Origin: a virus
Virus record (IMG/VR): IMGVR_UViG_3300045988_056175
DNA: 43,335 bases
Direction: 5' to 3' (one strand)
Position 1 is the stretch's first letter. Every line of letters starts with the position of its first letter. Below are positions 2,698 through 32,677 of this stretch, piece after piece. Under the pieces are notes generated by a model. It ran no database searches and was not told the origin of the DNA. It saw nothing but the letters and a program-made list of their open reading frames with translations. The translations under genes were made by a program, and so were the position numbers.

Positions 2698-3303
2698 ATG
2701 GAAAAGCAGACGATTATCCAGCAAATCCAGCCAAATTGCGACAATCTCTATAAGTGCATCCGGAAAGCAACGCTTGAACAGCATAAGACACACCGGGACA
2801 TTGTGGAGAATACCGGCGTGGCCCGGTCTACCGTAGCAAAGTTCCTTTCCGGAGGGATTTCTAATCCGACTGTGTTCTTCGTTTCTGCCCTTTGCATCTA
2901 TCTGGGGCTATCCCTGGATGAACTTATGGGAATCGCCCCACCACAGGCTCCCCAGGATGAAACGGCCGTGGAAATTGCAGAATTGAAGGGCCAGCTTGCC
3001 AAAGCTGAAGCGGAAGCTGCCCTGCTCCGGGAGCATAACAAGCGGCTGGAAGCCGGAATTGCAGAACGGAAGCCGATTATTTACGGCCTTGCGGGTCTGT
3101 GCATCTTCCTGGCCCTGGTATTTGTGGCGTATCTGTTTGTGGATGTGTCGGACGCTGACCATGGCTTTATCCGGAATAATCAGGTTTCCCCTACATTGAT
3201 CATCTTGATATTGGCAATCGTAGTGACGGCCCTTGGCACGGCCCACAGTATCGCAAAACGAAAAGCAGCAATGAAAAGGAATGGTGAACATGACAGCAAC
3301 TGA
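2698..3303 (+). CDS. Membrane-anchored XRE-family HTH protein
   Basis: N-terminal HTH (HRDIVENTGVARSTVAKFLSG), a coiled coil (AELKGQLAKAEAEAALLREHNKRLEAG) and two hydrophobic helices (IIYGLAGLCIFLALVFVAYLFV, TLIILILAIVVTALGTA). It overlaps the integrase start. Confidence 0.75.
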   Translation: MEKQTIIQQIQPNCDNLYKCIRKATLEQHKTHRDIVENTGVARSTVAKFLSGGISNPTVFFVSALCIYLGLSLDELMGIAPPQAPQDETAVEIAELKGQLAKAEAEAALLREHNKRLEAGIAERKPIIYGLAGLCIFLALVFVAYLFVDVSDADHGFIRNNQVSPTLIILILAIVVTALGTAHSIAKRKAAMKRNGEHDSN

Positions 3304-4870
3304 CGAAATGATAAAAAAGGCTTGTAATAAGTACAAAAAGACACGGTATGCCATGTATTTACGGAAGTCCCGTGCTGACCTGGAACTGGAAGCCATGGGA
3401 GAAGAAGAGACCCTGGCCCGTCACAAAGCCATGCTGTTCTCCCTTGCGGCAAAGCATGAGATTCACCCGGATCAGATTACCATATACCATGAACTGGTAT
3501 CCGGTGACAGCATAGATGAACGTCCGGAAATGCAGCGGCTTCTGGCAGACGTGTACGCCAAAACCTACGCCGGTGTGCTGGTGGTAGAGGTGGAACGGCT
3601 GGCCCGTGGCAATACGAAGGACCAGGGCGAAGTTGCTGACGCTTTCCAGGCCAGCAATACACACATCATCACCCCGGCGAAGGTCTATGACCCGAACAAT
3701 GAATTTGACCAGGAATATTTTGAATTCGGCCTGTTTATGAGCCGCCGGGAGTACAAGACCATCAAACGCCGTCTGGAAGCCGGGAAGAAACAGTCCGTCA
3801 TGGAGGGGAATTATATTCTTCCGCAGCGGGTGTTCGGTTATGACATTCTCCGGACAACAAAAAAAGACCGGACTTTGATAATCCGGCCTGAAGAAGCAAA
3901 ATATGTGAAGATGATATTCGATTGGCACATAAAAGAAAAACGTGCCACCGGCTGGATGGCCCGTCAAATGACACTGATGGGCATACCCACCACAAAAGGC
4001 CGTCCGGAATGGAACCGTGGCACTATCCGGGATATGCTGGCAAATCCCATCTATGCCGGGAAAGTCACCTGGGGCAAACGCAGGACCGTCAAAGAATATG
4101 ATCCTGAACTTGGGAAGCTGGTGAAGGTTATCAAAGAGGACGGCCAAATGGAAATCTATGAGGGCAAGCATGAGGGCATTATCAGCGAAGAAGAATTTGC
4201 AGAGGCCCAGCGTGTCACGGAGACCATGAAGAACCCGTCTGCGAAGGTCAGCACGGGACTGAAAAACCCGTTTGCCGGGTTAATGGAATGCTGCACTTGT
4301 GGCCGGAACATCATTGCAATGACCTACAATGACGGGCGCAGGGCAAGGCTTTCCCATGCCCGTGATACCATTTGCACGAAAAAGTCCCTTCCGATTGATG
4401 AGGTTTCCGAAGTGTTTATCAGCACCCTTCAGGCATATATAGAGGACTTCCGGACGAAGATGGAAATTGACGATAACAAGGACGAAATGGAAGCCTTCAA
4501 GGCCCGTCTGAACGCCATGGAAACGGAACTGGAAAAACTGGAACGGAAGCGGAAGAACCTGTTTGCCGATTACGAAGATGGCATCTACACCAGGGACGAA
4601 TTCCTGGAACGGAAGCTGCACTACAATGAGAAGATCGACAATACAAAAAAACAGATTCAGGAAGCCCGGAAAAGCACTCCTGAACCTGTTGATTACTCTG
4701 AACAAATCTCAAACCTGCATGCAATGATTGACTGCATGAAAGATGATGGTCTGTCCGTCAAGCAGAAAAACGACTTCCTGAAACAGTTCATTTCAAAAAT
4801 CACCTACGATTCCATTAGCTACGGTCAGCGTAGGGGAGGAAAAGCTATCCTGGAAGTGTTCTTGAAGTAG
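3281..4870 (+). CDS. int: Large serine recombinase (integrase)
   Basis: N-terminal resolvase-type motif YLRKSRADLE, a recombinase domain, a Cys-rich zinc-ribbon segment (CCTCGRN...HARDTIC) and a C-terminal coiled coil. ATG at 3281 or 3290. Confidence 0.93.
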   Translation: MVNMTATDEMIKKACNKYKKTRYAMYLRKSRADLELEAMGEEETLARHKAMLFSLAAKHEIHPDQITIYHELVSGDSIDERPEMQRLLADVYAKTYAGVLVVEVERLARGNTKDQGEVADAFQASNTHIITPAKVYDPNNEFDQEYFEFGLFMSRREYKTIKRRLEAGKKQSVMEGNYILPQRVFGYDILRTTKKDRTLIIRPEEAKYVKMIFDWHIKEKRATGWMARQMTLMGIPTTKGRPEWNRGTIRDMLANPIYAGKVTWGKRRTVKEYDPELGKLVKVIKEDGQMEIYEGKHEGIISEEEFAEAQRVTETMKNPSAKVSTGLKNPFAGLMECCTCGRNIIAMTYNDGRRARLSHARDTICTKKSLPIDEVSEVFISTLQAYIEDFRTKMEIDDNKDEMEAFKARLNAMETELEKLERKRKNLFADYEDGIYTRDEFLERKLHYNEKIDNTKKQIQEARKSTPEPVDYSEQISNLHAMIDCMKDDGLSVKQKNDFLKQFISKITYDSISYGQRRGGKAILEVFLK

Positions 4871-8823: not shown

Positions 8824-8824
8824 A

Positions 8825-20869: not shown

Positions 20870-20891
20870 TTTGCTTTAACCTCTTTCTGGC

Positions 20892-21518: not shown

Positions 21519-21519
21519 A

Positions 21520-21912
21520 TTATTTCACGCTCCATTCTTGTACTGACAGATTGATTTGGATGCTTTTCAGTTCTGCATCCTCTTTCGGAATAACAAGGGC
21601 GTTATCGTAAAAAACGATCACGGCGGAACCATCGTCCGCCATGACCGTTTTCCCCGAAACCTTGTTGAAATAGTTCTCGATCTTGGCCTTTGCCGCCTCC
21701 AACTGCTCCCACGTTCCCCGGTGGAAGCCGGTCAGCATGACGGTGGATTCCTGAAGGCCGTTTTCGTACAGCGGCGGCGTTTCCGTGTATTCACCCACAA
21801 AGTAGGGATACACGATTTCCCCGGCAGCATTGCCACGGTACACACCAAAGCCGTACTCAATCCCCAGGGCATCCATGGCATCAGCGATGATTTGTAATGG
21901 TTTACTGGTCAT
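21520..21912 (-). CDS. Tail completion / tail terminator protein
   Basis: 130 aa. The call rests on synteny within the connector module. Confidence 0.6.
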   Translation of the reverse strand: MTSKPLQIIADAMDALGIEYGFGVYRGNAAGEIVYPYFVGEYTETPPLYENGLQESTVMLTGFHRGTWEQLEAAKAKIENYFNKVSGKTVMADDGSAVIVFYDNALVIPKEDAELKSIQINLSVQEWSVK

Positions 21913-22325
21913 TCTTTATCCAACTCCCCAAAGATTTGATTGGCCCGTTTCTGGATCACGGTCTTTTTTTGGCCAAAGGCCCTCTGAAGGGTTCGGTTTG
22001 GGGTTTTACCGTGGGTAAAATGTCCATTCCCTACGTCATCCACATAGTACCAGCCGCCCTTTCTGCCGTCACCATGCAAGGCATATTCGCCGGTTCCGAA
22101 TTCCTCCCAGATTGCATTTTCCAGGGGGCTTCCGATGGTTGCTTCCTGGGCGGCTTCGTCCACGATATGCGCCCAGGAACCTTTCAACTGGCCGGTATCC
22201 ACACGGGAATTTCTCCGGGCCTGGGATTCCACCTCAGACGCAGCTTCTTCCAGGAATTTCAGGGCCTTTTCTTCAATGGCTTTTTTGACCTGGATGCTGA
22301 AATCCTCGAATTCCACTCCGGCCAT
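21909..22325 (-). CDS. HK97 gp10-like head-tail joining protein
   Basis: AASEVESQARRNSRVDTGQLKGSW matches the gp10-family pattern. The ORF overlaps its neighbour by 4 nt. Confidence 0.7.
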   Translation of the reverse strand: MAGVEFEDFSIQVKKAIEEKALKFLEEAASEVESQARRNSRVDTGQLKGSWAHIVDEAAQEATIGSPLENAIWEEFGTGEYALHGDGRKGGWYYVDDVGNGHFTHGKTPNRTLQRAFGQKKTVIQKRANQIFGELDKE

Positions 22326-22326
22326 A

Positions 22327-22668
22327 TCACTGCCCCCCAGTGTATTTCAGATAGATTTCCAGCTGGGAGCCGCTGCCCATCTCCATGGGGTTGTCAATCA
22401 GCAGAATGTCATAGACTTTCCCGTTGATAACCATGCGGCTATTCTCCGGTTCTATCCCGGAAAGGCCCACATAATCGGCAACGAAAACATGGGTGCTTTC
22501 CTGGATTTTGGCGTTGAATGTGGTGTACTTAGAATCACCGCCGGACAGGTCCAGCCAGCCCCGCAGCGTCTTTTTATCGGTCCAGGCCAATACCTGTTCC
22601 CCGATAGAATTTCGCTTCATGGTGGCCGTCTGGATCACCGCAGTGATGTTTCCGCCGATTCCTTTCAT
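22327..22668 (-). CDS. Head closure / head-tail adaptor protein
   Basis: 113 aa. The call rests on synteny (SPP1 gp16-like position). Confidence 0.6.
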   Translation of the reverse strand: MKGIGGNITAVIQTATMKRNSIGEQVLAWTDKKTLRGWLDLSGGDSKYTTFNAKIQESTHVFVADYVGLSGIEPENSRMVINGKVYDILLIDNPMEMGSGSQLEIYLKYTGGQ

Positions 22669-23216
22669 ACGCTCAACCCCTGTCCGAACCTGGCCTTCAT
22701 ATAAGGCTTCAGGAAGCCCAGCAGCGACTTGGGAAAGCCCATGGTGGAATTATCCCCATCCATGTTGAAATACGTCACAGAGTGCCGGGAAATGGTCTCA
22801 GACTGTACGCCAACCTTGTCCCCGTTATCAAGCTGCCATTGTAGCATCCGGGCCACGCCCTGTTTCACGTCAGCGGGGTAGACCACTTTCGTGAGAACTA
22901 CCCCGCTTTCGTCATACAGTTCTTCAGCCACCGTAATGGAGCCATTGGAAACAGCCGATACCGTTACCAGACCGGCGTTCAGTTCGGATTCCGTGATTTC
23001 CAGCGTGTCCCCAGCCTTGAAGGGGGTAGAACCGGGGACAAGCAGCTGGTTCCCGTCTGCCACTGCAACAGCAACAGCCCGGAACGCCCGTTTCTGGAAG
23101 TTGTTGTTTGTGTATGCTCGGATCAGAAGTTCCAGGGCCTGAAGCCGTGCTTCCAGAACGTTGTTGGGAACGTCTGTGGTCACAAACTGCTTCAGTTCAG
23201 TGACGGTCATAATCAT
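22665..23216 (-). CDS. Head-tail connector (gp6-like) protein
   Basis: The N-terminus VTELKQFVTTDVPNNVLEARLQALELLIRAYTNNNF is typical of DNA-packaging / head-tail connector proteins. Confidence 0.65.
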   Translation of the reverse strand: MIMTVTELKQFVTTDVPNNVLEARLQALELLIRAYTNNNFQKRAFRAVAVAVADGNQLLVPGSTPFKAGDTLEITESELNAGLVTVSAVSNGSITVAEELYDESGVVLTKVVYPADVKQGVARMLQWQLDNGDKVGVQSETISRHSVTYFNMDGDNSTMGFPKSLLGFLKPYMKARFGQGLSV

Positions 23217-23461
23217 TCGGATTCCCCCTTCGGCTTTCTGCCCTTCTTTGGCTTGGGTGCTTCGGTTGTGCCGATGCTGTCAAGATGGCCCTGGCATTTC
23301 GCTTTTACGGACAATTCGGACAGCACCAGGAAATCCGTGGGGGAAATACCCTCACGGACAATTTCCCCCACGGTGAAGCCTTTATCATCCCACCGGACAG
23401 CGTAGGCTTTCCCATCGTGGAAAAGGAAGGGCAATCCGTCAATGATGATAAATTCCTGCAT
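23213..23461 (-). CDS. Hypothetical head-module protein (82 aa, basic C-terminal tail)
   Basis: An ORF between the capsid and connector genes. The C-terminus is PKPKKGRKPKGESE. Confidence 0.55.
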   Translation of the reverse strand: MQEFIIIDGLPFLFHDGKAYAVRWDDKGFTVGEIVREGISPTDFLVLSELSVKAKCQGHLDSIGTTEAPKPKKGRKPKGESE

Positions 23462-23474
23462 GGTTTTGGCCCCC

Positions 23475-24503
23475 TTAACCGTTGGTCTTAATCATGCCGA
23501 TTTTGACGTTCTTGGGATTGAACTTCAGGGCGTAGTTGTCGGACGTACCCAGTTCGGTCTTGGTGGGGGATTCATTGGCAATGTTGTCCACTGCCAGGGA
23601 CAGGCCGTTGGGATGCAGCACCTTGCCCTGCTTGGTGTAGAACTTATCCGTACCGGCAGCGGTTTCCGGATCATAGTTCGTGGTGTACTGCTTCTCATAG
23701 TTGGTCTTGTCGCAGGACAGGAAAGCGCCCTCGCCCAGCAGGAAGGTCTTGTACACCGGGAAGCCAGCCTTGGAGTTGTCCAGGGTGTAGTAGTCGGTCA
23801 CCTTGACCGCCTTGCCGCCGATGGTGGGAAGCTGAATGTCCTGCTTGATAGCACCGGAGCCAGCCACGAACTTCTCATACTCCACCAGCCCCAGCTTCTT
23901 GTAGGCGGCGTAAATCTTGGAGTGCATGACCAGGAGGCCCAGACCGCCGGACATATCACCCAAAGCCGCCTGTTCGGCATCGATCAGGGTGGTTGCGCTG
24001 ATTTTGTTTGCGTCACCGATGGTGCCGGTAGTCACGGACAGGTCCGTGACGTGGGAGGACAGCGCAGCCACGCCCAGAACGGCGTTGATGATGTTCATCA
24101 GCTCATCTTCCCACACCTGGGTGTAGTAGTTCTGGATACGGGACTTGATGTAATCCAGAGGCTTTGCACCGGTCAGTTCACGGGTGAAATCCTTCGCCTT
24201 GAACGCCTTCATTCGCTGGATCATCATACAGGTCTGCTTGCTGCCGGAAATCTCCTGCGGCACGTTGTTGGTCAGGCCGTCATTGTTCAGAGCGGCCATG
24301 TTGGAATCATGGATGTTGATGGGGGTGTACATGGGGATGGTTGCCACGTTGCCCTTGCTGCCGATCAGGTCCATGATGGACGCATCCTGCCGGATAACGC
24401 CGGAGGCCAGCACAGGATTGGACCAGTAGTCCGCTTCCTGCATCATGTCGGTGAAAACTTCCTCGTCAAAGGAAAAGCCGCCAAAAAGTCCAGTTCTTGC
24501 CAT
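23475..24503 (-). CDS. Major capsid protein
   Basis: 342 aa, immediately downstream of the scaffolding gene. Confidence 0.85.
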   Translation of the reverse strand: MARTGLFGGFSFDEEVFTDMMQEADYWSNPVLASGVIRQDASIMDLIGSKGNVATIPMYTPINIHDSNMAALNNDGLTNNVPQEISGSKQTCMMIQRMKAFKAKDFTRELTGAKPLDYIKSRIQNYYTQVWEDELMNIINAVLGVAALSSHVTDLSVTTGTIGDANKISATTLIDAEQAALGDMSGGLGLLVMHSKIYAAYKKLGLVEYEKFVAGSGAIKQDIQLPTIGGKAVKVTDYYTLDNSKAGFPVYKTFLLGEGAFLSCDKTNYEKQYTTNYDPETAAGTDKFYTKQGKVLHPNGLSLAVDNIANESPTKTELGTSDNYALKFNPKNVKIGMIKTNG

Positions 24504-24525
24504 AGTTTATTACCTCATTTCTTGA

Positions 24526-25188
24526 TTATTGTGCCTTGTACTGATTGTACAGGGCCTCGTTTTCTGCCTTGAATTTGGAGCGTTCTTCCACGCCCATCTT
24601 GCGGAACTGTTCCAGGGTCACGCCATTGCCGTCACCGCCGAAGGGAGGAAGGCCGCTGTCAGCGAATTTCCGCTGATTCTTGCCCTCAAACATAGTCGGG
24701 AACTGCGTTTTCAGGCCGGACAGCAAACCGTCCCAGCCCTTGATATTGTCGGCATCGTCCAGTTCCAGGGACTTACCTTCTTCCTTCAGCTTGCTTTCCA
24801 GCTTGTAGGACAGGTAATCCACATCCAGTGCCTTTTCAGACAGCAGAGCCACCTTAATGGCAGACTTGACTTTCGTCTCCTGAAGCTGCTGCTGAAGCTG
24901 CTGAATCTGGCCTTCATAGGTGGTGATTTTGCCTTGCAGTTCCTCGTTGCCCTTGGTTCCCTTTTTCAGTTCGGCAATCAGGCCGTTGGCGGTATCCAGT
25001 TCGGTGGTCTTTCCGTCCAGCGCAGCCTGAAGGGCATCATATTTCCCTTTGCCCACATACTCGCCGCTGCCAAGGTTGGCAAGCTTGATCTGCTTGTCCT
25101 TGTTGGCCTCGTTGCCGTTGTAGGCATTCAGGGCCGTTTCCAGTTGTGCGTAGAGGTCATTCCCCAAAATCTCTTTCAGAAATTCCAT
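24526..25188 (-). CDS. Scaffolding protein
   Basis: 220 aa, helical and acidic. The N-terminus MEFLKEILGNDLYAQLETAL and the coiled-coil segment LQGKITTYEGQIQQLQQQLQE are typical of GP20-type scaffolds. Confidence 0.82.
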   Translation of the reverse strand: MEFLKEILGNDLYAQLETALNAYNGNEANKDKQIKLANLGSGEYVGKGKYDALQAALDGKTTELDTANGLIAELKKGTKGNEELQGKITTYEGQIQQLQQQLQETKVKSAIKVALLSEKALDVDYLSYKLESKLKEEGKSLELDDADNIKGWDGLLSGLKTQFPTMFEGKNQRKFADSGLPPFGGDGNGVTLEQFRKMGVEERSKFKAENEALYNQYKAQ

Positions 25189-25308
25189 TGTTTATCCTTC
25201 CTTGCCACTGTTTTTTAGCGTGGTGTCCTCCACTGGCAAACACTTTGTTGAACCCGGAAGTGCGCCGGGAATTTAGGAAAGTTTTAATGCCATTACCTTA
25301 TTGGGCAT

Positions 25309-25336
25309 GAAAAAAGCGCCCTGTTTCCAGAGCGCT
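25309..25336 (-). terminator. Terminator after the holin-like gene
   Basis: Minus strand: AGCGCTCTG-gaaa-CAGGGCGCT followed by TTTTTT. Confidence 0.65.
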
Positions 25337-25350
25337 TGATTCAGTTTGAT

Positions 25351-25575
25351 TCAGGCATCTTTGCTTTCACTGTCACCGGAGCCAATCCCGGCGGCATCCG
25401 TCAGGCCCTCTGCGATGATGTACGCCACCAGAGTGCCACCGGCCATAATGATACCGGTCACCTGGGTAACGGTGTCGTTGGCCACGCCAAAGGCCAGCAG
25501 CAGGGGAGTGATAAAGCCGGTCACAGCCACCCAGAACTTCCGGCTCGTCAGCTTGCGCTTCCAATCGATTTTCAT
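25351..25575 (-). CDS. Holin-like small membrane protein (74 aa)
   Basis: MKIDWKRKLTSRKFWVAVTGFITPLLLAFGV...VTQVTGIIMAGGTLVAYIIAEG: two hydrophobic helices after a basic N-terminus. This pattern resembles the SPP1/LL-H type holins of Bacillota phages. Confidence 0.65.
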   Translation of the reverse strand: MKIDWKRKLTSRKFWVAVTGFITPLLLAFGVANDTVTQVTGIIMAGGTLVAYIIAEGLTDAAGIGSGDSESKDA

Positions 25576-25600
25576 GTTTATTGCCCCTTTCGGTTAATAT

Positions 25601-25748
25601 AAAAAGCAACCTGTCAGATTTCCCGACTGGTTGCCTTTTTACGTATTATCATTTACGTGAGTTGCAACGCACGATAAACGCACGAAAAACGCACACCGTG
25701 CGTTTTTAGGCATAGAAAAAGCACCATGCGGGTTGCATAGTGCTTTTT
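25601..25748. terminator. Cluster of three A-run/hairpin/T-run (bidirectional-type) terminators
   Basis: The three hairpins are 25601-25640 (GCAACCTGTC-N9-GACTGGTTGC), 25685-25707 (ACGCAC-acc-GTGCGT) and 25716-25748 (AGCACCATGC-N5-GCATAGTGCT). Each is flanked by an A5 run and a T5 run. Confidence 0.65.
25666..25694. repeat. Three direct AACGCAC repeats with 11-bp spacing
   Basis: AACGCAC occurs at 25666, 25677 and 25688, upstream of the holin-like gene. Confidence 0.6.
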
Positions 25749-26049
25749 ATTTCCATCTATCAGCCTTCCACCGCTCAAAAAGTGGGGTAGCCCGTCTCCT
25801 TGGGTTCTTTTTCACTCTATCAAGAAAAATCTTGTCCTGTTCCTCAACTTCCTTGTTGAATCCATTATCCCACAGGAATTTCCTTACGGCGTTCAGCTGC
25901 TCCACATATTCTTTGCTTTTGCTTATGAGGCGTTCATAGTTCTTATCAAGCAACTGTACAATGGATGAATTTTCACCGTACTTGTCTGCGATTGAGTAGC
26001 AATATTCATCGCATTCATACCCGTATATTGGGAATTCAAATGGTTTCAT
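25747..26049 (-). CDS. Hypothetical 100-aa protein translationally coupled to the ART fusion gene
   Basis: The ATG at 26049 overlaps the upstream TGA (ATGA). GGTGG lies 5 nt upstream. The gene is AT-rich and is followed immediately by a terminator. Confidence 0.65.
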   Translation of the reverse strand: MKPFEFPIYGYECDEYCYSIADKYGENSSIVQLLDKNYERLISKSKEYVEQLNAVRKFLWDNGFNKEVEEQDKIFLDRVKKNPRRRATPLFERWKADRWK

Positions 26050-27704
26050 TCTATCCACCTACCTTTCACGATTGGCATTCCGCCGCTTGTATCAACCTCG
26101 AAAACCTCAAATTTGGCGTTCCTCTTGAGTAAGAACTCATATTCGTCATTTTGGAAACCGGACAGCTGATTGATATATGCCCCACGCCCAGCACCAGACG
26201 GGACGAAAAGCTGAAGCAGAACGCCATCCTGCCCGTTCTGTGATGCAAATTTTTCTGCAACACTACGAACCGGCGATGTGCTAGAAAACGCATTGTCTGA
26301 GAAGGACTGCCCGACCAAATCGCTAAGTTCTTCTGCGTCAGGGAACAACTGAATGATTGTGTCAAGGTCTATCCCTCGGTATGTTTGAATACCGTCTTTT
26401 AGATTAAAAGACGAAATAGCCTTGTCAATCAGATCCGTTTGATATTTAACCCTATCAGCATCGATATTCTGCCAATCGCCAATTCTCCGCCAATACTTGT
26501 TAATATCATCGTAAGCGTCAGCACAGTAATCAGCAATAGCGGGGCGTGTTCCGTTCTCAAGATTATTCATCCACTTCCCATACTGGGAATTCCTTTTTGC
26601 CAACAAACCACGTTTATCATCGTCAAAATAAAAGAAGTCATTGGCTTCATTCCCGCCGGAAAGACTTTTGAAATTGCTCTCTGAAAAATCCGTCTTTATT
26701 GTAGCACTTCCACCGGAATTTTCAACTGCCTTTTCTGCCGCTGTCAGATACTTTTTCCTGAAATCCTCGAAATTCTCCGTCTTATCCAGTCCAAAGTATT
26801 CCGCCCGGTCCTTCAGCGTCTGAAGTTCATCGTCATCCAACGCCCATCTGGCCCGTGTGTCGCAGGTGCATCGGCAGTTAATGACTTCAGCGGCAGAACC
26901 ATAGGGGTCACCGGGGAAGCGGAGGCCATTGCTGAACTTTTCATCCAGTTCCCGGATTTCTCCGTCAACCCGTGCATGGGAATCCCGTGTTCTGCCGTCC
27001 AAAGCGGCATCCCACTGTTTCAGCACATCGGCCCCCTTGGCCTTTGCAGCGTATTGGGCATCCCGTGCGGAAGTCTGCTGGATGCGGTGGCCTTCCGTCC
27101 GGGTGATTCGCTTGGCGTTATACAGGCCGCTGCCGGATGCGTTGTTGATGTTCCGGGCAATGTCACGATAGGGGAGACCGGATGCTATGCCCCGGCTGAT
27201 CTCCTGGGTGATAACCTTTTTCAGGCTGGCCACATTCACGCCCAGGGCGGCATAATAGCCGCCCCGGACTTTGGAATCTGTCAGAATGGCCTTGACTGCT
27301 GCCGCCTGATCTATGGGGACGATGAGGGGAATACCCTGACCGGCGATGCTGTACATTGTGCCAATATAGCCGGTCTCATAGCATCCCTTCAGGTAGCTGT
27401 CAATGGTGGTGTAATTGTCCCCCTGCATCTTGTCCAGGACGCTGCTGACCTGGCTTTTCAAAGCCTCCTGGTATTGCTTCTGATAGATTTTAGACCGCTT
27501 CTGGGATTTCAGCATGGCCTTGGTGGTATCGTCAAGCCCTTCCTGGTTCATGGCAGCATCCAGCAGGTCAATGTCCGTCTGAAACTGCTTGACCTTCTGA
27601 TTTATGTCCGCAAGCGCCCTCTTGTACTGCTTTTCCAGTTCCTCAATGGCCGCTCCCTCGGAATCAAGGAGGGACTGCTGAACTTCTTTTTCCCATCGGT
27701 TCAC
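26046..27704 (-). CDS. Minor head (SPP1 gp7 / Mu F-like) protein fused to a C-terminal ADP-ribosyltransferase domain
   Basis: The GTG start overlaps the portal stop (GTGA). Mu-F-type motifs are ITRTEGHR, DGRTRDSHARVDGE and INCRC. C-terminal ART motifs are YCADAYDDINKYWR, YRG (R443), FSSTS (475-477) and QNDEYEF (E521, E523). Confidence 0.85.
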   Translation of the reverse strand: MNRWEKEVQQSLLDSEGAAIEELEKQYKRALADINQKVKQFQTDIDLLDAAMNQEGLDDTTKAMLKSQKRSKIYQKQYQEALKSQVSSVLDKMQGDNYTTIDSYLKGCYETGYIGTMYSIAGQGIPLIVPIDQAAAVKAILTDSKVRGGYYAALGVNVASLKKVITQEISRGIASGLPYRDIARNINNASGSGLYNAKRITRTEGHRIQQTSARDAQYAAKAKGADVLKQWDAALDGRTRDSHARVDGEIRELDEKFSNGLRFPGDPYGSAAEVINCRCTCDTRARWALDDDELQTLKDRAEYFGLDKTENFEDFRKKYLTAAEKAVENSGGSATIKTDFSESNFKSLSGGNEANDFFYFDDDKRGLLAKRNSQYGKWMNNLENGTRPAIADYCADAYDDINKYWRRIGDWQNIDADRVKYQTDLIDKAISSFNLKDGIQTYRGIDLDTIIQLFPDAEELSDLVGQSFSDNAFSSTSPVRSVAEKFASQNGQDGVLLQLFVPSGAGRGAYINQLSGFQNDEYEFLLKRNAKFEVFEVDTSGGMPIVKGRWIE

Positions 27705-29149
27705 ACTGCATCACCTTCCGGCTGAATGCCTCCCAAAGCCGCCTGGGCTTCCGCTGTGGCGTTTTCTTCGGGCTTGGGTACTTTGTCCTTGACTTCCGTG
27801 AAATCCAGGTCCAACTGCTCACAGATAAGCTGTAGCTTGGTTTCGTCATCGATGGTTCCGGCCAGATTCAGGATGGTGGTGATCTCCGTCTGCTTGCGCT
27901 GGGCCTCCACCAGTTCGATTTGGGCGTTCTCCTGGGCGTTGGTGGGGATCTCCCGTTCAAACTCAAAATATACGTCCTTCTGCTGATAATCCGTGCCGTT
28001 TTCCTCGTTGACTTCTGCCAGGACTACACCCACCAGCTTCCGGAGGAACGGCTTCAGCCGGTTTTCCAGCTTCTTGGCCCGGAGTTCCAGCAGGGAATAG
28101 GCGGACTGAATGGCCAGGTTTGTGGTTGCCGCTGTGTCCTTCAGGCCAGCCGTATTCAACGCAAAACCGAAGCGATAGATATTCTTCTCGTCAACTTCCA
28201 TCTTCGTTTTACGGGCCTCCACGGGAATGTCAACGGTCTGCACGTCCACGCCGCCATCTTCGTCAACGCCGATATGCTTTTTCGCCCGGATATTGGTCAT
28301 GAGTTCGTCCAGGTTATCCCCCTGGAACCCTCTGACAACGTACAGGGCCTCGTTGGTATCCTGGATGTTATTGGACAGTCCGGCATTCATGAGGTCGTAG
28401 TCATCGATCAGGTCTTTCACCGGGGGCAGGGCCGAAACCTGCTTCTTGTTGTTGTCCATGCGGAAGAACGGGATGAACCCGTAGCTTAAACCACCGGGGT
28501 TCCCGTCCTGGTATGCGCTGTGGGGCTGTGGGTTCGGCTTTACGGCCTTATCCGGGATAATCTCCCCCTCATTCACACGGGTGAAGAAATACACGCCAGC
28601 GTCATCGTAGACCCGGATATTGTAAATCTTGTTCCCGTCCTTGTCGGTCCGGTCCTCATACCAGTAGATGATATATGCCCGGTGGTCAGAGGTGTACTTT
28701 GGCTCACATTCCACCACGCCCATACAGTCAGCCCACTGGAAGCAGGTTTTCCCGTTTTCGTCCCGCTTGGCAAACATCCAATCGAAGCCCTTCGCCTGAA
28801 CCCCGGTGATGGTGTCCGCAAGTTCGGCCATGAACTCGTCATTGTTGTTGAAGTATTCGTCAAGATACCCCTGAAGGGCCGGGTCATCGGACTTTACGAA
28901 CCCATCTTCCCCGGAAAGCAGATACGGAACAATCTGGTCCACGATTTCGGTAAAGAACGGGTGGGAAATGCGGATATTGCTTTTGGTCTTATCCTCTTTC
29001 ACCTCGCCGCTTGCATCGATATAGAAAATCTTGTAGTTCCGTATATCGTGCCGCCCTTCGTAGTAATCCAGCCCGACTTTCGCCAGCCGTTTTTTGGTGC
29101 TGGCACTGTCGTTCTGAATGAACTGCGCAATCTCGCTGGGTGTAATCAT
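27701..29149 (-). CDS. Portal protein (SPP1 gp6-like)
   Basis: 482 aa. The N-terminus (LAKVGLDYYEGRHDIRNYKIFYID...SHPFFTEIVDQ) matches the SPP1-type portal pattern. Confidence 0.88.
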   Translation of the reverse strand: MITPSEIAQFIQNDSASTKKRLAKVGLDYYEGRHDIRNYKIFYIDASGEVKEDKTKSNIRISHPFFTEIVDQIVPYLLSGEDGFVKSDDPALQGYLDEYFNNNDEFMAELADTITGVQAKGFDWMFAKRDENGKTCFQWADCMGVVECEPKYTSDHRAYIIYWYEDRTDKDGNKIYNIRVYDDAGVYFFTRVNEGEIIPDKAVKPNPQPHSAYQDGNPGGLSYGFIPFFRMDNNKKQVSALPPVKDLIDDYDLMNAGLSNNIQDTNEALYVVRGFQGDNLDELMTNIRAKKHIGVDEDGGVDVQTVDIPVEARKTKMEVDEKNIYRFGFALNTAGLKDTAATTNLAIQSAYSLLELRAKKLENRLKPFLRKLVGVVLAEVNEENGTDYQQKDVYFEFEREIPTNAQENAQIELVEAQRKQTEITTILNLAGTIDDETKLQLICEQLDLDFTEVKDKVPKPEENATAEAQAALGGIQPEGDAV

Positions 29150-29163
29150 TTCATCACCACCTA

Positions 29164-29598
29164 TTAGGTCGTTTCGGTATCCGTTGCGGCAATGCTGATT
29201 TTCAGGCTATTCGGGTCAAACAGGGCCACTTCGCCGCTTGCGCAGGTGACAGGGGTTTTCAGCTTCCCGTAAAAGTACGGTGTGCCGCCTGTTTCAGTAG
29301 CGAAAAGGCCGAATCCCTTTGCCTGTTTCCAGTCGGCGGTAGATTTTGCCCAGGTGATCTGCTTGACGTTCTTGATCTCACGGGATGCTGCTGCGCCGAT
29401 AACATCAGGATACGTAGCACCGCTGACGGATACCAGGACACGGGCATAATTGCCGCCGGTCAACTCCGTAAACGTGCCGTTATTGGCTTCCGGGTCATTG
29501 GAGCAGAGGCCGATATAGACCTTGCTGTGGTTGGTCAGGCTGTTCTTGCCGAAAGCCCAGCCCAAAATGTTATTGGCGTAAGTGTTAGAAAATGGCAT
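29164..29598 (-). CDS. Hypothetical protein (144 aa) between terL and the portal gene
   Basis: AGGAGG lies 8 nt upstream. I can name no family. Confidence 0.6.
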   Translation of the reverse strand: MPFSNTYANNILGWAFGKNSLTNHSKVYIGLCSNDPEANNGTFTELTGGNYARVLVSVSGATYPDVIGAAASREIKNVKQITWAKSTADWKQAKGFGLFATETGGTPYFYGKLKTPVTCASGEVALFDPNSLKISIAATDTETT

Positions 29599-29618
29599 AG
29601 TAATGTCCTCCTATAATT

Positions 29619-30638
29619 TTATTGTTCAGCGTAAATTCTCATAGTGTGTGTTGCAGCGGTATCTTTTGCATATGCAACAATACTTGCGGTATTATCGACG
29701 TCACTCAGCAAGAACGGCTCACCTGACGGCGCAACGTTTGGAGTCAATGTATTGCTCAACAGTTTAGATAACACCCCTGTATTACCTAGTGCCACAGCGA
29801 TCTCTGCTGAACCGCTGCTATAGGTATATTTCACGTACTTAGCAACACAGGAATATTTTACTCCGTCCCACTCTACCGTGTACGTTTTGCCTAGTTCAAG
29901 CACCTTGGATAGCGGAAGCTTTGGTGAACAATACACTTTGAACACGAAGTCGTTCTTAAACGTAGCTGTTGTTTCTGGTAAATAGTCATCCGCACCGGGT
30001 TCCGGTTCTGCAAACGTTGTGAGTGTAGCTATGTGGGCCGTAGCGGCAACAGGGAAGCCGTTCACCGCAACCGCAACCACATTTGCGGGGTTAATGCCGG
30101 TTTCGTTCTCCATCGCTCTTGTAGCCGTGACGGGCTTTGTGCCGGAAGTATCCAGCTTTGACGCTGCCGCTGTGTGGATCATGTTGCCCAAATGCAGGAC
30201 TTTCGCCAAAGCACAGGCAAGCAACACAAGCAGTCGGGAGGTCACTTTTCGGATAGACGTTGCAGCCTTTCCGGCGGCGCTCTGCATTTTCCCCAGCAGC
30301 CGGGTTTCAATGCGCTTGACGTACACCAGCGCCGCCCTACGGTAAGAAACAAAGTTTGCCAACAGTTTCCCTTGTACGGATTTTCCCGCTGCCGTAGCCT
30401 TTGCCGTGTGGTGTGAAGCGTTTGCTTGCCGGTGTAACTGGATGCTTTCCGTAAAACTTCCGTTCTCACCGTGGGAAGACGATATTTGTGCCTTCAGCTT
30501 TGTGACGATTTTTGCAGGAGCATCCAGAAAGCGCCAAATAATCCCACGCAGCTTTATCAGGGCCGTAAACGTTGGGACATGGGCAATCTTGCCGCCCATA
30601 TCCGGGCGCACTTTGCGAAATTTCCCGTGTAAGATCAT
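29619..30638 (-). CDS. Hypothetical protein (339 aa) with a basic Ala/Lys/Leu-rich N-terminal half
   Basis: Its ATG overlaps the upstream TGA (ATGA). Confidence 0.55.
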   Translation of the reverse strand: MILHGKFRKVRPDMGGKIAHVPTFTALIKLRGIIWRFLDAPAKIVTKLKAQISSSHGENGSFTESIQLHRQANASHHTAKATAAGKSVQGKLLANFVSYRRAALVYVKRIETRLLGKMQSAAGKAATSIRKVTSRLLVLLACALAKVLHLGNMIHTAAASKLDTSGTKPVTATRAMENETGINPANVVAVAVNGFPVAATAHIATLTTFAEPEPGADDYLPETTATFKNDFVFKVYCSPKLPLSKVLELGKTYTVEWDGVKYSCVAKYVKYTYSSGSAEIAVALGNTGVLSKLLSNTLTPNVAPSGEPFLLSDVDNTASIVAYAKDTAATHTMRIYAEQ

Positions 30639-30979
30639 GCGCCGTCACCCCGCTTTGTTACGTTCGGCATGAGGAGGAACTCACTTTGCTCCACGATGTT
30701 ATAGAAAACATCCTCGCCACGCTGTAAGCCCACATCGTAGTAATACCGCCCCGGGAACAGGCCAATGGTATCCTCCGGGGATAACTCAAAAAAATATTCC
30801 CCATCCACGGAATGGGTGATGGTTTTGATTAAAACCCGGTCTTCATCCCGTTCCCGCCGTTTCAGGCCGAAAACAAGAGAATCGTTTTCGCTGAGTGTGT
30901 ACGGGTTCCCATCGCCGTCCGTTATGGTTAGGCCGAAGGTGTTTGACGTTCCCCGGACGATTTCAAGATTCTGTTTCAC
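30635..30979 (-). CDS. Hypothetical small beta-rich protein (114 aa, possibly Ig-like)
   Basis: GTG start after GGTGGA. The sequence pattern is LEIVRGTSNTFGLTITDGDGNPYTL. The fold call is weak. Confidence 0.5.
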   Translation of the reverse strand: MKQNLEIVRGTSNTFGLTITDGDGNPYTLSENDSLVFGLKRRERDEDRVLIKTITHSVDGEYFFELSPEDTIGLFPGRYYYDVGLQRGEDVFYNIVEQSEFLLMPNVTKRGDGA

Positions 30980-30993
30980 GCTTCCACCGCCCT

Positions 30994-31419
30994 TTACTTC
31001 AGAAAATCATGCTTACGCAGTCTATCATTGTATGAATCTTTAATCTGTGCGATTGCTGCAACAGCAATCTGGTTTTCAAATTCCGGGTGTGCATCGCAGT
31101 ATTTTTCATAGTGCGTAATATCACCCAGAATCTGTTTGAAATGTTCTTGGCTGTGGGGCTGGCCCAGGTAGATTTCATCCGAAAAGCGGAGGATTCGCAC
31201 CCGGCAATCCTTCGCATGGATTTCCCGGTTTTCGTCCCGGATAGTGTCAATCTCGGTTCTCATGGCTGTCACCTGGGACAGCAGGTCTTTGTTTACCTGC
31301 CTCCCCAGCCAGCCCAGCATAGCGGACCAGGGGTTCAGTTTGACCGGGGCAATCTGGATCAACGTCAGCAGGACCAGCAAGCCCCCGCCGCCTCCGTAGA
31401 GGATTTCTTTCATTGTCAT
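30994..31419 (-). CDS. Membrane-anchored hypothetical protein (141 aa)
   Basis: ATG at 31419 lies 8 nt after AGGAAG. It has an N-terminal hydrophobic helix (GGGGGLLVLLTLIQIAPV) followed by a helical soluble domain. Confidence 0.6.
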   Translation of the reverse strand: MTMKEILYGGGGGLLVLLTLIQIAPVKLNPWSAMLGWLGRQVNKDLLSQVTAMRTEIDTIRDENREIHAKDCRVRILRFSDEIYLGQPHSQEHFKQILGDITHYEKYCDAHPEFENQIAVAAIAQIKDSYNDRLRKHDFLK

Positions 31420-31450
31420 TTGTGGCACTTCCTATCATGTGTATTTATGA

Positions 31451-32677
31451 TTAAGTCAGCCACTTCTTGACTTTGCGCCAGCCCTCCACGCCATACCGCA
31501 AGGCTGCCATTGCGTCATCCTGGAAGGGGACAGGTTCATCAAGATATTCGCCTGACTTATCATCCTTCTTCCATTTCCATTGCTGCAACTCTTTGATGGT
31601 GTTTATGCAATGCGGATGAATATATATCCTCCGTTGCTTCAGCCAGTCAATTTGCGCCTTGACGGAACCGGCAGAGCCGCCTTTGTCAACGCCTCTGGCA
31701 CGGAACCCGGCTTTCTGCCACATCTTGATTCTGTCCGGTTCTGCGGAATCACACCACATTTGCTTATTCCGGGGAATACCCGCTGCAAGCTGGATGATTT
31801 CAGCCGTGTCCTTCTCAAACACATATATTTCAGACAGGATGAAAATGTCATCGTCCTTTACGCCCAGCAATAGAATGGCATTTGCATGGTTGAAACCGAA
31901 GTCCTGGCCTATGGCTATATCGTCATAGTCGTTCGGATTTTGGGAAACCTCTTTGATTTCCCAGTTGTGGAGTATCAAGCCGCCGATTTCGCCCCATTCC
32001 CCCAATCCATATATTTGATATCCTTCCGGATCAACCAGCTTTCTGCGCTCCATACGGGCCTTATAGGCATCGTCTATGAAACGGTTCATCAGGTAGGTGG
32101 AGTGATGGGTCAGAACGTTGGGGTCTGGAATATCAAAAAAGACCTTCTTGATCCAGTGATTCTTATTCACCGGGTTGAAGGTCATTCTAATTTGATAAAA
32201 CTGCCCAGGCGGCAACTCACCACGGAGACGGTCATCAATGATTTCCACGTCTGCCTGTGTCAACTCCGTTGCCTCCTCGCACCAAACATCCGTCAATTTG
32301 CCACGCTGGAAGGTGATGGACTTCAGCTTTTCACGCTGCTTGTCATCGTTCATGCCCCGGAAGATTATCTGGTTGCCGTTGGCCTTACAGGTCAGCTTCA
32401 GCGGGGACATATTGATTTGCCAGTATTTATCCGCCTGGTCTCCAAACATTCGGTAGATAGCCCCTGTGAGTTCCGCAAAGGTACTGTCACGGTTGGTTAT
32501 ATCAGATTTGCGAATACAGACCAGGTTCCGGCCCTTATCCTTCATCAGGCGGAGAATGTAATTCTGGGCAGTGTCAACGGATTTCCCGGAACCGGCGCTT
32601 CCACGCATGACAATATAGCGCTTGTCGCTTCGGTCTACTTCCTTGAAACAAGGGTTCGCCTGGACTTTCAGGTTCAC
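31451..32677 (-). CDS. terL: Terminase large subunit
   Basis: Walker A motif RGSAGSGKS near the N-terminus, 408 aa, PBSX/Terminase_3-like layout. The GTG start overlaps the upstream stop (GTGA). Confidence 0.9.
   Translation of the reverse strand: MNLKVQANPCFKEVDRSDKRYIVMRGSAGSGKSVDTAQNYILRLMKDKGRNLVCIRKSDITNRDSTFAELTGAIYRMFGDQADKYWQINMSPLKLTCKANGNQIIFRGMNDDKQREKLKSITFQRGKLTDVWCEEATELTQADVEIIDDRLRGELPPGQFYQIRMTFNPVNKNHWIKKVFFDIPDPNVLTHHSTYLMNRFIDDAYKARMERRKLVDPEGYQIYGLGEWGEIGGLILHNWEIKEVSQNPNDYDDIAIGQDFGFNHANAILLLGVKDDDIFILSEIYVFEKDTAEIIQLAAGIPRNKQMWCDSAEPDRIKMWQKAGFRARGVDKGGSAGSVKAQIDWLKQRRIYIHPHCINTIKELQQWKWKKDDKSGEYLDEPVPFQDDAMAALRYGVEGWRKVKKWLT

Follow-up and report, generated by a model that had tools for sequence, protein, structure and literature searches.

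A putative MuF-family toxin with an ADP-ribosyltransferase domain and a small overlapping partner gene on an exchangeable cassette of a temperate-type phage

Introduction

MuF toxins are common in gut prophages. The 2017 survey counts 191 members in the family, 14% of which are ADP-ribosyltransferases (ARTs) and 89% of which have an ORF of <150 aa downstream (PMC5576092). The fusion of a MuF (gp7-type) region to an ART is in itself already in the literature, having been published for the EFV toxin (2010), for MuF polymorphic toxins (2017), for Alt/VIP2-MuF proteins (2022), and for Bxa with its immunity proteins (2024). The EFV toxin combines MuF with an ExE-type ART and loses its toxicity to yeast when E461A/E463A are introduced (PMC3000352). 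The MuF-ART Bxa is antibacterial and specific for arginine; an ARH hydrolase and a binding protein, Bsi, both neutralize it (PMC11699363). Head packaging has been predicted for Alt/VIP2 ARTs fused to MuF (PMC9503650). Packaging of MuF-ARTs into the virion and their ejection from it is a standing hypothesis (PMC9503650, PMC11699363, PMC5576092), and the biological role of MuF toxins was still called unknown in the 2024 Bxa paper (PMC11699363).

Here we analyze a MuF-ART gene in the viral record IMGVR_UViG_3300045988_056175, the whole 43,335-nucleotide stretch of which is referred to as the window. An initial annotation of the window, made from the sequence alone, had described the gene as a gp7/Mu-F-like head protein carrying an apparently active ART domain.

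Results

The gene lies in the head region of a temperate-type phage

The source of the window is best explained as a complete temperate siphovirus-type phage of ~43.2 kb infecting gut Clostridia. The phage was marked as temperate because it encodes a large serine recombinase and an HTH protein. Its head region has the gene order terminase, portal, MuF-ART, scaffold, major capsid, and a holin-like ORF sits between the scaffold gene and the cassette that carries the ART domain.

2698..4870, plus strand: lysogeny module, with an HTH_3 protein at 2698-3303 (HTH_3, 2.8e-6) and a large serine recombinase at 3281-4870 (Resolvase, 1e-12; Recombinase, 2.2e-20)
27701..29149, minus strand: portal gene, 482 aa (SPP1_portal, 2.4e-56; PHROG 64 portal, 7e-87)
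26046..27704, minus strand: MuF-ART gene, putative polymorphic toxin, 552 aa, GTG start, TGA stop at 26046-26048
25351..25575, minus strand: holin-like ORF, 74 aa (PHROG 297 holin, 2.1e-9; Pfam Phage_holin_1, weak)
24526-25188, minus strand: scaffold gene (Phage_scaffold, 3.8e-25)
23475-24503, minus strand: major capsid gene (Gp13-like, 1.2e-7)
23475..25188, minus strand: scaffold and major capsid block, context of the cassette (PHROG hits for the pair: PHROG 194 and PHROG 247)

Related prophages occur, integrated, in genome contigs of Clostridia (Oscillospiraceae, Lachnospiraceae, and Clostridium), and related sequences derive from gut metagenomes and MAGs. A megablast search with positions 20000-32000 gave no match in 50,697 phage records, and the phage thus has no close relative among these isolated phages. 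With the ART module alone, tblastn found only phages of Enterococcus and of Pseudomonas syringae, which align over roughly half of the module at 28-38% identity. The portal stop and the MuF-ART GTG start share four nucleotides (GTGA, 27701-27704), and GGAAGGTGA precedes the GTG. The initial annotation had called the two genes translationally coupled; the overlap and the upstream GGAAGGTGA are compatible with such coupling, short of proving it.

A MuF region is joined to an ART domain with intact catalytic residues

The ORF (26046-27704, 552 aa), the motifs, the residue numbers, and the codon positions were all as the initial annotation gave them, and both domains that it had named were recovered by profile searches at scores above the cut-offs, well outside what chance would produce.

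26740..27704, minus strand: conserved MuF/gp7 N-terminal region, aa 1-322, with the Pfam MuF core at aa 164-280 (26865-27215)
26049..26684, minus strand: ART domain, aa 341-552, with the Pfam match at aa 372-539 (26088-26591)

Phage_Mu_F (PF04233) matched aa 164-280 (E 5.1e-17; 63.1 bits, cut-off 29.6), TIGR01641 phageSPP1_gp7 scored 41.1 bits (cut-off 39.65), and the MuF motifs were found at 200-207 (ITRTEGHR), 236-249 (DGRTRDSHARVDGE), and 275-279 (INCRC). These matches place the N-terminal 322 aa in the SPP1-gp7/Mu-F family. The AlphaFold2 (AF2) model of the MuF core was poor (pLDDT 30-50), so the structure gives no support for portal binding. A PHROG 595 match spans aa 1-544, and the entire fusion therefore represents an existing phage protein family.

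ADPrib_exo_Tox (PF03496) matched aa 372-539 (E 7e-26; 91.2 bits, cut-off 23.4). On the ART fold we found, in order, the arginine, S-T-S, and [QE]xE elements of the R-S-E (cholera-toxin) group: YRG at 442-444 (R443), FSSTS at 473-477 (S475-T476-S477), and QNDEYEF at 518-524 (E521 and E523; E521-Y-E523 codons GAATATGAG at 26144-26136). The NAD-site helix YCADAYDDINKYWR lies at 393-406, with the key residues Y393, Y398, N402, and R406. The signature that the initial annotation had judged complete is indeed intact, with R443, S475, E521, E523, Y398, and R406 invariant in 15/15 ART-bearing relatives, and the catalytic and NAD-site residues are kept in relatives down to ~33% identity. A phmmer search of the PDB aligned R, STS, and ExE with those of VIP2 (1.5e-9), the significant alignment being confined to the C-terminal catalytic domain (VIP2 residues 222-381). 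Most of the ART domain was modeled by AF2 at pLDDT 81-94, and the modeled fold matched C3-type and related ARTs: Foldseek returned Plx2A, Certhrax, C2-I, C3, VIP2, CDTa, and 8za7 at E ~1e-10, with a target TM of 0.65-0.75 for single-domain targets. Of these, 8za7 is a Listeria ART effector-immunity pair. By homology and predicted fold, the last ~210 aa form a mono-ADP-ribosyltransferase of the Alt/VIP2/C3 type (R-S-ExE) in which no catalytic residue is lost, and we regard the identities of both domains as practically certain.

The ART domain and a small ORF form one exchangeable cassette

Comparison with homologs places the C-terminal part of the gene, together with a small ORF that overlaps its stop codon, on a discrete segment of low GC content.

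25752..26739, minus strand: exchangeable cassette, ~0.99 kb, comprising linker, ART domain, and small ORF; GC 43.5% versus 53-55% in the flanks
26736..26795, minus strand: junction motif FGLDKTENFEDFRKKYLTAA, aa 304-323, left recombination flank, past which relatives diverge
25747..26049, minus strand: small ORF, 100 aa, candidate for the cognate immunity protein; its start codon and the toxin TGA together form ATGA, and AGGTGG lies 5 nt upstream

In most of the best 120 homologs, the part held in common runs from aa 1 to ~325-350 only (75-98% identity; total lengths 436-778 aa), similarity to the query stopping at aa 320-355; many proteins with an N-terminal MuF region 75-98% identical to this one thus bear other C-termini. 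The junction motif FGLDKTENFEDFRKKYLTAA is present in 100 of these 120 homologs. At least 14 unrelated C-terminal clusters occur on the same MuF backbone among 100 close homologs. One phage, L002, is 97% identical to the window on both sides of the cassette, up to 26740 (or 26731) and from 25751, with no similarity inside. Conversely, L018, which has an unrelated backbone, has only 26737-25745 in common with the window, at 80% identity. Identities to the window at six related loci were as follows:

L023: N-terminal region 95%, ART 92%, small ORF 88%
L001: N-terminal region 52%, ART 85%, small ORF 85%
L018: N-terminal region 33%, ART 87%, small ORF 73%
L024: N-terminal region 34%, ART 74%, small ORF 71%
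L005: N-terminal region 77%, ART 44%, small ORF 35%
L002: N-terminal region 98%, ART none, small ORF unrelated

The base composition changes along with the alignments. GC3 falls from 0.62-0.78 over aa 1-300 to 0.40-0.54 over aa 301-550, and G+C is 21/60 in 26401-26460 (ART part) versus 35/60 in 27001-27060 (gp7 part). The initial annotation had given exactly these two counts and had taken them as a sign that the ART domain was acquired by fusion; its foreign origin is borne out by the different C-terminus of the 97%-identical L002. As judged from these alignments, the ART part and the overlapping small ORF are one discrete low-GC cassette that has been swapped in sister phages.

The initial annotation had favored a virion-delivered effector for takeover or anti-defence. 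In an Alt-like form of this role, the injected ART would aid the incoming phage, either by redirecting transcription or translation in the host or by inactivating one of its defence systems, rather than serve as a weapon or a means of discrimination. Such a role would suit a gene that adjoins the portal gene and is fused to a gp7-type module; the R-S-ExE enzyme class is common to this ART and to T4 Alt, which is packaged in the head (PMC3000352, PMC9503650, and PMC5576092 make this analogy), and Jamet et al. propose a role of this kind for "low-toxicity" ART and protease modules (PMC5576092). It is weakened, however, by the at least 13 other unrelated modules that take the place of the ART, each with its own small ORF downstream, a pattern that marks a polymorphic toxin-immunity system and not a fixed infection step. 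Since 97%-identical phages work with a metallopeptidase-like or other module instead, this infection cycle does not require the ART. Moreover, a dedicated partner ORF co-varies with the ART, which implies that the ART domain harms the cell that produces it, and PMC5576092 reports MuF toxins only from temperate phages. We consider the takeover or anti-defence role unlikely.

The locus combines a MuF domain, a site in the head module by the portal gene, a toxin domain that also occurs in other toxin systems, C-terminal swapping, and a temperate carrier, and the protein very likely belongs to the MuF toxin family. We hold with good confidence that it is a MuF-family polymorphic toxin with a partner gene in the head-morphogenesis operon of a temperate phage.

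The small ORF follows the ART module

Apart from the C-terminal part of the toxin, the small ORF is the only ORF of the cassette, and across L023, L001, L018, L024, L005, and L002 its degree of identity goes with that of the ART module rather than with that of the MuF backbone. On this ground it is a candidate non-enzymatic immunity protein. As in MuF toxins generally, it is shorter than 150 aa, has an ATGA overlap with the toxin gene, and co-varies with the module; an immunity function is predicted. No credible match was found in Pfam, PHROG, or NCBIfam. The AF2 model consists of four helices (pLDDT 81, pTM 0.75), which had no match among PDB folds (best E 2.7). The family comprises 22 clusters among 1.84 billion representatives, has a conserved C-terminal tail (P-[LM]-x-E-R-W-K), and is thus small, besides being unannotated. 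Profile comparisons with the small ORFs of AE4_2 and L025 were not significant (probabilities 2.6% and 0.9%), and these are therefore not claimed as family members. Immunity of the hydrolase type known for Bxa was rejected, as the ORFs scanned include neither an ARH nor a macro protein (ORFs of <~100 aa outside the head region were scanned in part).

Alternatively, the small ORF might encode a chaperone or packaging adaptor specific to the module, or be a moron that has no relation to the toxin and hitch-hikes in the cassette. It has neither homology to immunity or inhibitor families nor a fold match, and co-variation indicates partnership without specifying its direction, so that a chaperone or adaptor predicts the same pattern. 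In L025, furthermore, an ART ~43% identical to that of the window stands beside an unrelated small ORF, so the linkage between toxin and small ORF is not universal. Against these roles, the position, the 100-aa size, the 4-nt overlap, and the co-variation with the module are hallmarks of immunity genes in the MuF and other polymorphic toxin systems (PMC5576092), and such genes have been experimentally confirmed for Bsi (PMC11699363) and IapK (PMC12226406). We judge a chaperone, adaptor, or moron rather improbable; the small ORF probably encodes the cognate immunity or inhibitor protein.

A promoter-like element and a terminator-like hairpin flank the cassette

26698..26725, minus strand: promoter-like element in coding sequence at the 5' boundary of the cassette, TTGAAA-16 nt-(TG)C-TACAAT
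25710..25748, minus strand: intrinsic-terminator-like hairpin, 14-bp stem, loop AACCC, then UUUUUCU; starts inside the small-ORF stop codon

The promoter-like element matches at 10/12 positions and has a TG extension, and its -10 is made of the rare codons ACA and ATA. It was found 50-73 nt past the junction in 8 of 12 distinct loci, unrelated cassettes included, against a background of 1 per 4.8 kb, and its hexamers are conserved at 0.96/0.96 versus 0.69 for the spacer. Because the element lies in coding sequence near the conserved junction, this conservation may partly reflect shared ancestry. It could be a functional internal promoter, a suggestion from sequence that we put forward with some doubt.

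The hairpin, which was missed by a consensus terminator scan and is seen clearly by direct folding (-18.9 kcal/mol, z -5.8), forms a conserved flank on the right side of the cassette. In L002 and L005 it is found at 92-100% identity, beside different cassettes, and it recurs with compensatory changes in L023 and L025; L018 and L024 are without it. The partner small ORF, the exchangeable cassette, the promoter-like element, the hairpin, and the published MuF-ART precedents were all absent from the initial annotation.

The acceptor residue and the target cell

The ExE motif and the precedents of the EFV toxin and Bxa (PMC3000352, PMC11699363) point, by analogy, to arginine as the rather more probable acceptor. 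In another reading, the protein would be a toxin or colonization factor that is freed upon lysis of induced lysogens and hits cells of the animal host, with the small ORF shielding only the producer before release. The nearest solved relatives modify actin or Rho (VIP2, C2-I, iota, CDTa, C3, Plx2A, and Certhrax), yeast is killed by the EFV toxin (PMC3000352), cytoskeletal proteins of epithelial cells are modified by Bxa, which also supports colonization of the gut (PMC11699363), and sequences of the relatives come from gut metagenomes and MAGs. The protein, however, has neither a signal peptide nor a second (adaptor) ART-like domain, no binary-toxin B component was found among the ORFs scanned, and the many alternative modules on one backbone point to bacterial conflict. 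We regard a primary role against eukaryotic cells as improbable, the two roles not being mutually exclusive. Membership in the binary actin-ADP-ribosylating toxins (iota, C2, VIP2, and CDT), which have tandem ART-fold domains and a separate B component, was ruled out, as there is a single ART domain, the N-terminus is MuF, and no B-component family occurs among the ORFs scanned.

That the ART domain has decayed, or survives as a structural element with no enzymatic role, has a negligible probability and was rejected because the catalytic and NAD-site residues are all present and invariant in relatives (15/15), in an uninterrupted ORF with a confident AF2 fold.

Discussion

We propose that the MuF part would bind the portal, so that the protein would enter the procapsid and exit with the DNA in the manner of SPP1 gp7; by analogy, packaging into virions and ejection are marginally favored. 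In the cytoplasm of the recipient, the ExE-type ART would transfer ADP-ribose from NAD+ onto arginines of bacterial proteins. The 100-aa helical protein would be co-produced with the toxin through the ATGA overlap and would bind the ART and block its active site in the producer cell, as may be compared with Bsi/Bxa and IapK/Apk2. The promoter-like element and the hairpin could allow the immunity gene to be expressed alone, for example in lysogens. A bolder version, which we think unlikely as a whole, is that the cassette is an autonomous promoter-to-terminator unit with a sigma-A-type promoter, that lysogens make the immunity protein without the toxin, that virions poison cells without the matching cassette but leave kin lysogens unharmed, as a kin-discrimination weapon, and that the 100-aa protein founds a new family of ART active-site inhibitors.

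The locus is a very clean natural experiment, as ~97%-identical sister phages differ only in a ~1-kb cassette of toxin and partner with sharp edges. This makes it a good system for studying the packaging and injection of MuF toxins, neutralization by the small ORF, and the survival of lysogens exposed to each other's phages. If functional, the promoter-like element and the terminator would show how immunity is decoupled from late-gene expression, which bears on models of competition and of the lysogeny decision.

Comparison with known systems

SPP1 gp7-type proteins are present in the virion in few copies, bound to the portal, and leave with the DNA; what the window has in common with them is sequence membership and a portal-adjacent position only. 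In colicin operons, the toxin gene is directly followed by the immunity gene, which can have a constitutive promoter of its own within the toxin gene, an arrangement that the promoter-like element of the window suggests as well. Colicins, unlike the proposed toxin, are bacteriocins that are encoded on plasmids, induced by the SOS response, and set free by a lysis protein, and they are not virion components. T4 Alt is a head-packaged R-S-ExE ART that is injected with the DNA of a virulent phage. It is not fused to MuF and enters the head by means of a capsid-targeting sequence and processing by the prohead protease; we know of no immunity gene or module swapping for it. The likeness thus lies in the R-S-ExE class of the window ART, Alt being head-packaged and co-injected with the DNA (an analogy cited in PMC3000352 and PMC9503650).

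With the MuF family at large (Jamet et al. 2017, PMC5576092; Apk2/IapK/Aph1, PMC12226406, PMC10083569), the traits in common are the MuF N-terminus, a variable toxin, a small ORF, an origin in temperate Firmicutes phages, and abundance in the gut. The toxin of Apk2, however, is a (p)ppApp synthetase and not an ART (PMC12226406, PMC10083569). In the available text of PMC5576092, PMC12226406, and PMC10083569, we found no description of cassette edges, of a promoter-like element, or of a terminator. Bxa, from the Bacteroides stercoris prophage PhiBxa, is antibacterial and arginine-specific and is neutralized by the products of adjacent small genes, BAH and Bsi, and its homologs carry alternative toxin domains, as does the backbone in the window (PMC11699363). 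Compared by description, Bxa is longer, its ART lying past residue 620, and is paired with two immunity proteins, of which one is a hydrolase of the ARH1 type, whereas the window has one small helical partner and no adjacent ARH among the ORFs scanned.

The EFV toxin (UniProt Q838U8, Enterococcus faecalis V583 prophage, with homologs in phages EFP1 and AE4_2) has, as here, an N-terminal MuF region and a C-terminal ExE ART. It differs in its host, Enterococcus rather than gut Clostridia, and in its shorter length (UniProt gives 487 aa, the AE4_2 annotation 431 aa); identity to the window protein is 26.5% overall and ~39% in the best ART stretch. Its small ORF is 67 aa long, and the likeness to that of the window is limited to a C-terminal motif of 10 residues and is not significant. 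The layout is nevertheless the same in both: the toxin gene comes right after the portal gene, is overlapped by a small ORF, and is followed by the scaffold and capsid genes.

The MuF protein carries an apparently active ART domain

The initial annotation described a gp7/MuF-like head protein fused to an apparently active ADP-ribosyltransferase (ART). This fusion ORF (MuF-ART) was confirmed as a minus-strand reading frame of 552 aa (27704-26046), each motif named there lay at its residue, the ExE codons (GAATATGAG) fell at 26144-26136, and the reported G+C counts (21/60 and 35/60) were exact. Profile-HMM searches recovered Pfam Phage_Mu_F at aa 164-280 (E 5.1e-17, 63 bits, cut-off 29.6) and ADPrib_exo_Tox at aa 372-539 (E 7e-26, 91 bits, cut-off 23.4). 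The protein also passes the NCBIfam phageSPP1_gp7 domain model, and PHROG 595, annotated as 'head maturation protease', extends across the entire fusion (aa 1-544, E 1e-59). The gene upstream encodes an SPP1-type portal (2.4e-56), the stop codon of which overlaps the GTG start of MuF-ART (GTGA), with a Shine-Dalgarno-like GGAAGGTGA upstream; this start is supported by the homologs, which begin with MNRWEKEV or MNKWEKEV. The portal-MuF coupling is broken in two relatives, by an HNH endonuclease gene in L005 (9500-10000) and by three small genes in L025 (1343-2435).

The best matches in a PDB sequence search were VIP2 (1.5e-9), Plx2A, Certhrax, CDTa, C2-I, and iota-Ia, and the catalytic motifs of VIP2 align with YRG, STS, and EYE of MuF-ART. 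In an AlphaFold2 model built on a 29-sequence alignment, residues ~341-552 reached pLDDT 81-94 in most 10-residue blocks and the MuF core 30-50 only. A Foldseek search of the ART model against the PDB returned Plx2A, Certhrax, C2-I, C3bot, VIP2, and CDTa, as well as the Listeria ART-ARH effector-immunity pair 8za7, with E-values of ~1e-10 and a target-normalised TM of 0.65-0.75 for single-domain targets. The description of the domain as apparently active and ExE-type is justified because R443, S475, E521, E523, Y398, and R406 are invariant across 15 relatives with the ART, whose identity to the query goes down to ~33%, and because the spacing of the helix residues Y393/Y398/N402/R406 equals that of Y345/F350/N354/R358 of the EFV toxin, which its authors assigned to NAD binding (PMC3000352). 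From the ExE motif, the EFV toxin, and the MuF-ART Bxa, we infer arginine specificity.

A stand-alone 256-aa ART, 41% identical to the window ART module, was found in L020 (4001-4962) and also in L021; in L020 it overlaps a 64-aa ORF by 4 nt and is closely followed by a 1010-aa gene, in a block without family hits. The same ART type therefore occurs unfused, elsewhere in a presumably phage-like element.

The ART domain lies in a sharply bounded, exchangeable cassette

Polymorphism was judged on the best 120 homologs of MuF-ART (436-778 aa long), most of which lack the ART domain and show 75-98% identity to the query over its first 59-64% alone. Their common N-terminus extends up to a junction, ...AEYFGLDKTxNFEDxxxKYLxA (aa 304-323), beyond which lie HExxH metallopeptidase-like, JAB-like, other ART, and many unannotated modules. 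These C-termini form 14 or more unrelated clusters, and the ART group accounts for 12 of the 100 homologs with the junction motif among the best 120.

At the DNA level, L002 and the window share 97.4% identity over 29616-26740 and ~97% from 25751 onward, with no DNA similarity between 26740 and 25751. L018, whose MuF backbone is unrelated to that of the window (33% identity over 116 aa), has only 26737-25745 in common with it, at 80% identity. These independent comparisons thus place the cassette edges at the same positions within ~10 bp:

25752-26739 (-), exchangeable cassette
25747-26049 (-), small ORF of 100 aa, within the cassette

The cassette has a G+C content of 43.5% and its flanks 53-55%. 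The initial annotation had suggested that the AT-rich ART part was acquired by fusion; the composition shift is explained by exchange of the whole low-GC cassette, so that the acquired block exceeds the ART domain alone.

The small ORF is a candidate immunity gene

The ATG of the small ORF overlaps the TGA stop of the toxin gene (ATGA), with AGGTGG 5 nt upstream. Across loci, its identity tracks the ART module rather than the MuF backbone, L025 being the exception.

Table. Identity to the window of the MuF N-terminus, ART module, and small ORF in relatives
L023: MuF 95%; ART 92%; small ORF 88%
L001: MuF 52%; ART 85%; small ORF 85%
L018: MuF 33%; ART 87%; small ORF 73%
L024: MuF 34%; ART 74%; small ORF 71%
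L005: MuF 77%; ART 44%; small ORF 35%
L025: MuF 78%; ART 43%; small ORF unrelated (99 aa)
L026: MuF 80%; ART 29% (different ART class); small ORF unrelated (49 aa)
L002: MuF 98%; ART none; small ORF unrelated (61 aa)

The protein had no match in Pfam, PHROG, or NCBIfam. It was predicted to be compact and four-helical (pLDDT 81, pTM 0.75), and the model had no fold match in the PDB. Its family comprises 22 clusters at 50% identity among 1.84 billion representatives, short proteins throughout, with a conserved core and, in most members, a C-terminal P-[LM]-x-E-R-W-K tail:

25750-25782 (-), tail motif P-[LM]-x-E-R-W-K-x-D of the window (aa 89-99)

A similar string, TLLDRWQADA, occurs in an otherwise unrelated 67-aa ORF after the MuF-ART of Enterococcus phage AE4_2 (L022 ~4104-4133), a likeness that hhalign found not significant. 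The motif may be one through which both kinds of protein contact the ART.

The scanned window ORFs included no ARH or macro hydrolase; the small ORF is therefore most likely a non-enzymatic, binding-type immunity protein, for which Bsi against Bxa (PMC11699363) and IapK against Apk2 (PMC12226406) provide precedents. A possible alternative is that it acts as a chaperone.

Signals at the cassette edges

L002 and L005, despite their differing cassettes, match the 39 nt directly 3' of the small-ORF stop at 92-100% identity; this stretch folds as a hairpin with a 14-bp stem and a trailing UUUUUCU (-18.9 kcal/mol, z -5.8). The terminator-like hairpin is retained in L023 and L025 via compensatory changes and is absent from L018 and L024; the unrelated phage AE4_2 has a different hairpin and T-run in the equivalent position. 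At the 5' edge lies a promoter-like element:

26725-26698, TTGAAA-16 nt-TGCTACAAT

In 8 of 12 distinct loci, including cassettes for unrelated domains, such an element lies 50-73 nt past the junction, with TACAAT, TATAAT, or TAAAAT as the -10 and a background rate of one match per 4.8 kb. Conservation anchored on the -35 was 0.96 for the hexamers, 0.69 for the constant-length spacer, and 0.67 and 0.54 for the flanks, and the -10 is always made of ACA/ATA, rare choices in this phage at 15% of Thr and 12% of Ile codons. In these mutually related loci, and close to a conserved junction, this suggests constraint at the nucleotide level, so the cassette may be its own transcription unit and could supply immunity outside the late phase. 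Colicin immunity genes have an arrangement of this kind.

Genome context

The first and last 119 bp of the window (1-119 and 43217-43335) are 100% identical, marking the window as a circularised assembly of a complete ~43,216-bp genome; many relatives' contigs have the same size (~43.2 kb). Its gene content is that of a temperate tailed phage:

Head and packaging: small and large terminase, portal, MuF-ART, scaffold, major capsid
Lysogeny: large serine recombinase with an HTH protein
Other: tail genes, GH25 endolysin, replisome organiser, methylases

Related prophages occur in genomes of Oscillospiraceae, Ca. Caccovivens, Lachnospiraceae, Sporofaciens, and Clostridium, and no isolated phage similar at the DNA level was found.

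A tail-tip triplet (215-aa ORF, Prophage_tail protein, DUF859 protein) is present twice in the same order within 6778-16070 (-), the copies being separated by a GH25-LysM-CW_7 endolysin (11111-12079):

15423-16070, 13840-15444, 12104-13840 (-), set A
10449-11096, 8825-10435, 6778-8832 (-), set B

The sets show pairwise protein identities of 34%, 30%, and 26% and no DNA similarity, and could stem from an ancient duplication or serve as a second module for host range. Within the head module, a holin-like 74-aa ORF (25351-25575, -) separates the cassette from the scaffold gene and lies ~13 kb away from the endolysin; in L005 (12180-13054) and L025 (4690-5563) an r1t-type holin and an Amidase_3-SPOR endolysin occupy this slot. 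Between the terminase and Gp80-like/portal genes lies a further variable slot of low GC (0.43-0.46), 29619-30638 (-), which holds a 339-aa ORF without a family match; L002 similarity ends at its edge (29616), and in the sister phages L002, L003, and L004 the ORFs in this slot measure 302, 502, and 343 aa. In 41482-43100 (-), a radical-SAM-like 292-aa ORF that stays below the Pfam gathering score directly precedes a C-5 cytosine methylase-like ORF, and a separate N6/N4 DNA methylase adjoins the small terminase (33474-34211, -); together they may form a DNA-modification or anti-restriction set.

Proposed role and comparison with known systems

We propose that the MuF part would bring a few MuF-ART copies into the procapsid via the portal, that the partner protein would hold the ART silent in the producing cell, and that the ART, once ejected into a new cell, would ADP-ribosylate arginines of bacterial proteins. 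We favour a role in conflict or discrimination because modules swap and partner genes are dedicated. The initial annotation had proposed host takeover or anti-defence; its MuF and ART identities and intact catalytic set stand, but swapping and partner genes disfavour takeover as a fixed step, and we consider such a role rather unlikely. A Bxa-like role against animal host cells appears quite improbable. Several of these roles could hold at once. MuF-ART was rejected as a binary actin toxin, as it has a single ART domain and the scanned ORFs yielded no B component.

The MuF-ART architecture is already published. Fieldhouse et al. 2010 described the EFV toxin, an E. faecalis V583 prophage protein that joins a phage minor-head domain to an ExE ART and whose yeast toxicity was lost on E461A/E463A mutation; they compared it to T4 Alt and suggested a 'phage infection conduit' (PMC3000352). 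Jamet et al. 2017 defined the MuF family as occurring only in temperate phages, mostly of Firmicutes, and as gut-abundant, with ARTs in 14% and a downstream ORF of <150 aa in 89% (n=191), and proposed toxin delivery with the DNA (PMC5576092). Iyer et al. 2022 noted many Alt/VIP2-family ARTs fused to MuF and probably packaged in heads (PMC9503650). Bxa is an antibacterial MuF-ART with promiscuous arginine modification, neutralised by an ARH1 hydrolase and by Bsi, a binding protein; the 2024 JBC paper that shows this states the biological role of MuF toxins to be unknown (PMC11699363). Enterococcus phages EFP1 and AE4_2 match MuF-ART at 97% coverage, with the same gene order. The window locus carries every sequence-testable defining feature of the MuF toxin family, to which it adds a sharply bounded toxin-partner cassette, a small unannotated family of candidate inhibitors, and conserved promoter-like and terminator elements on either side of the cassette.
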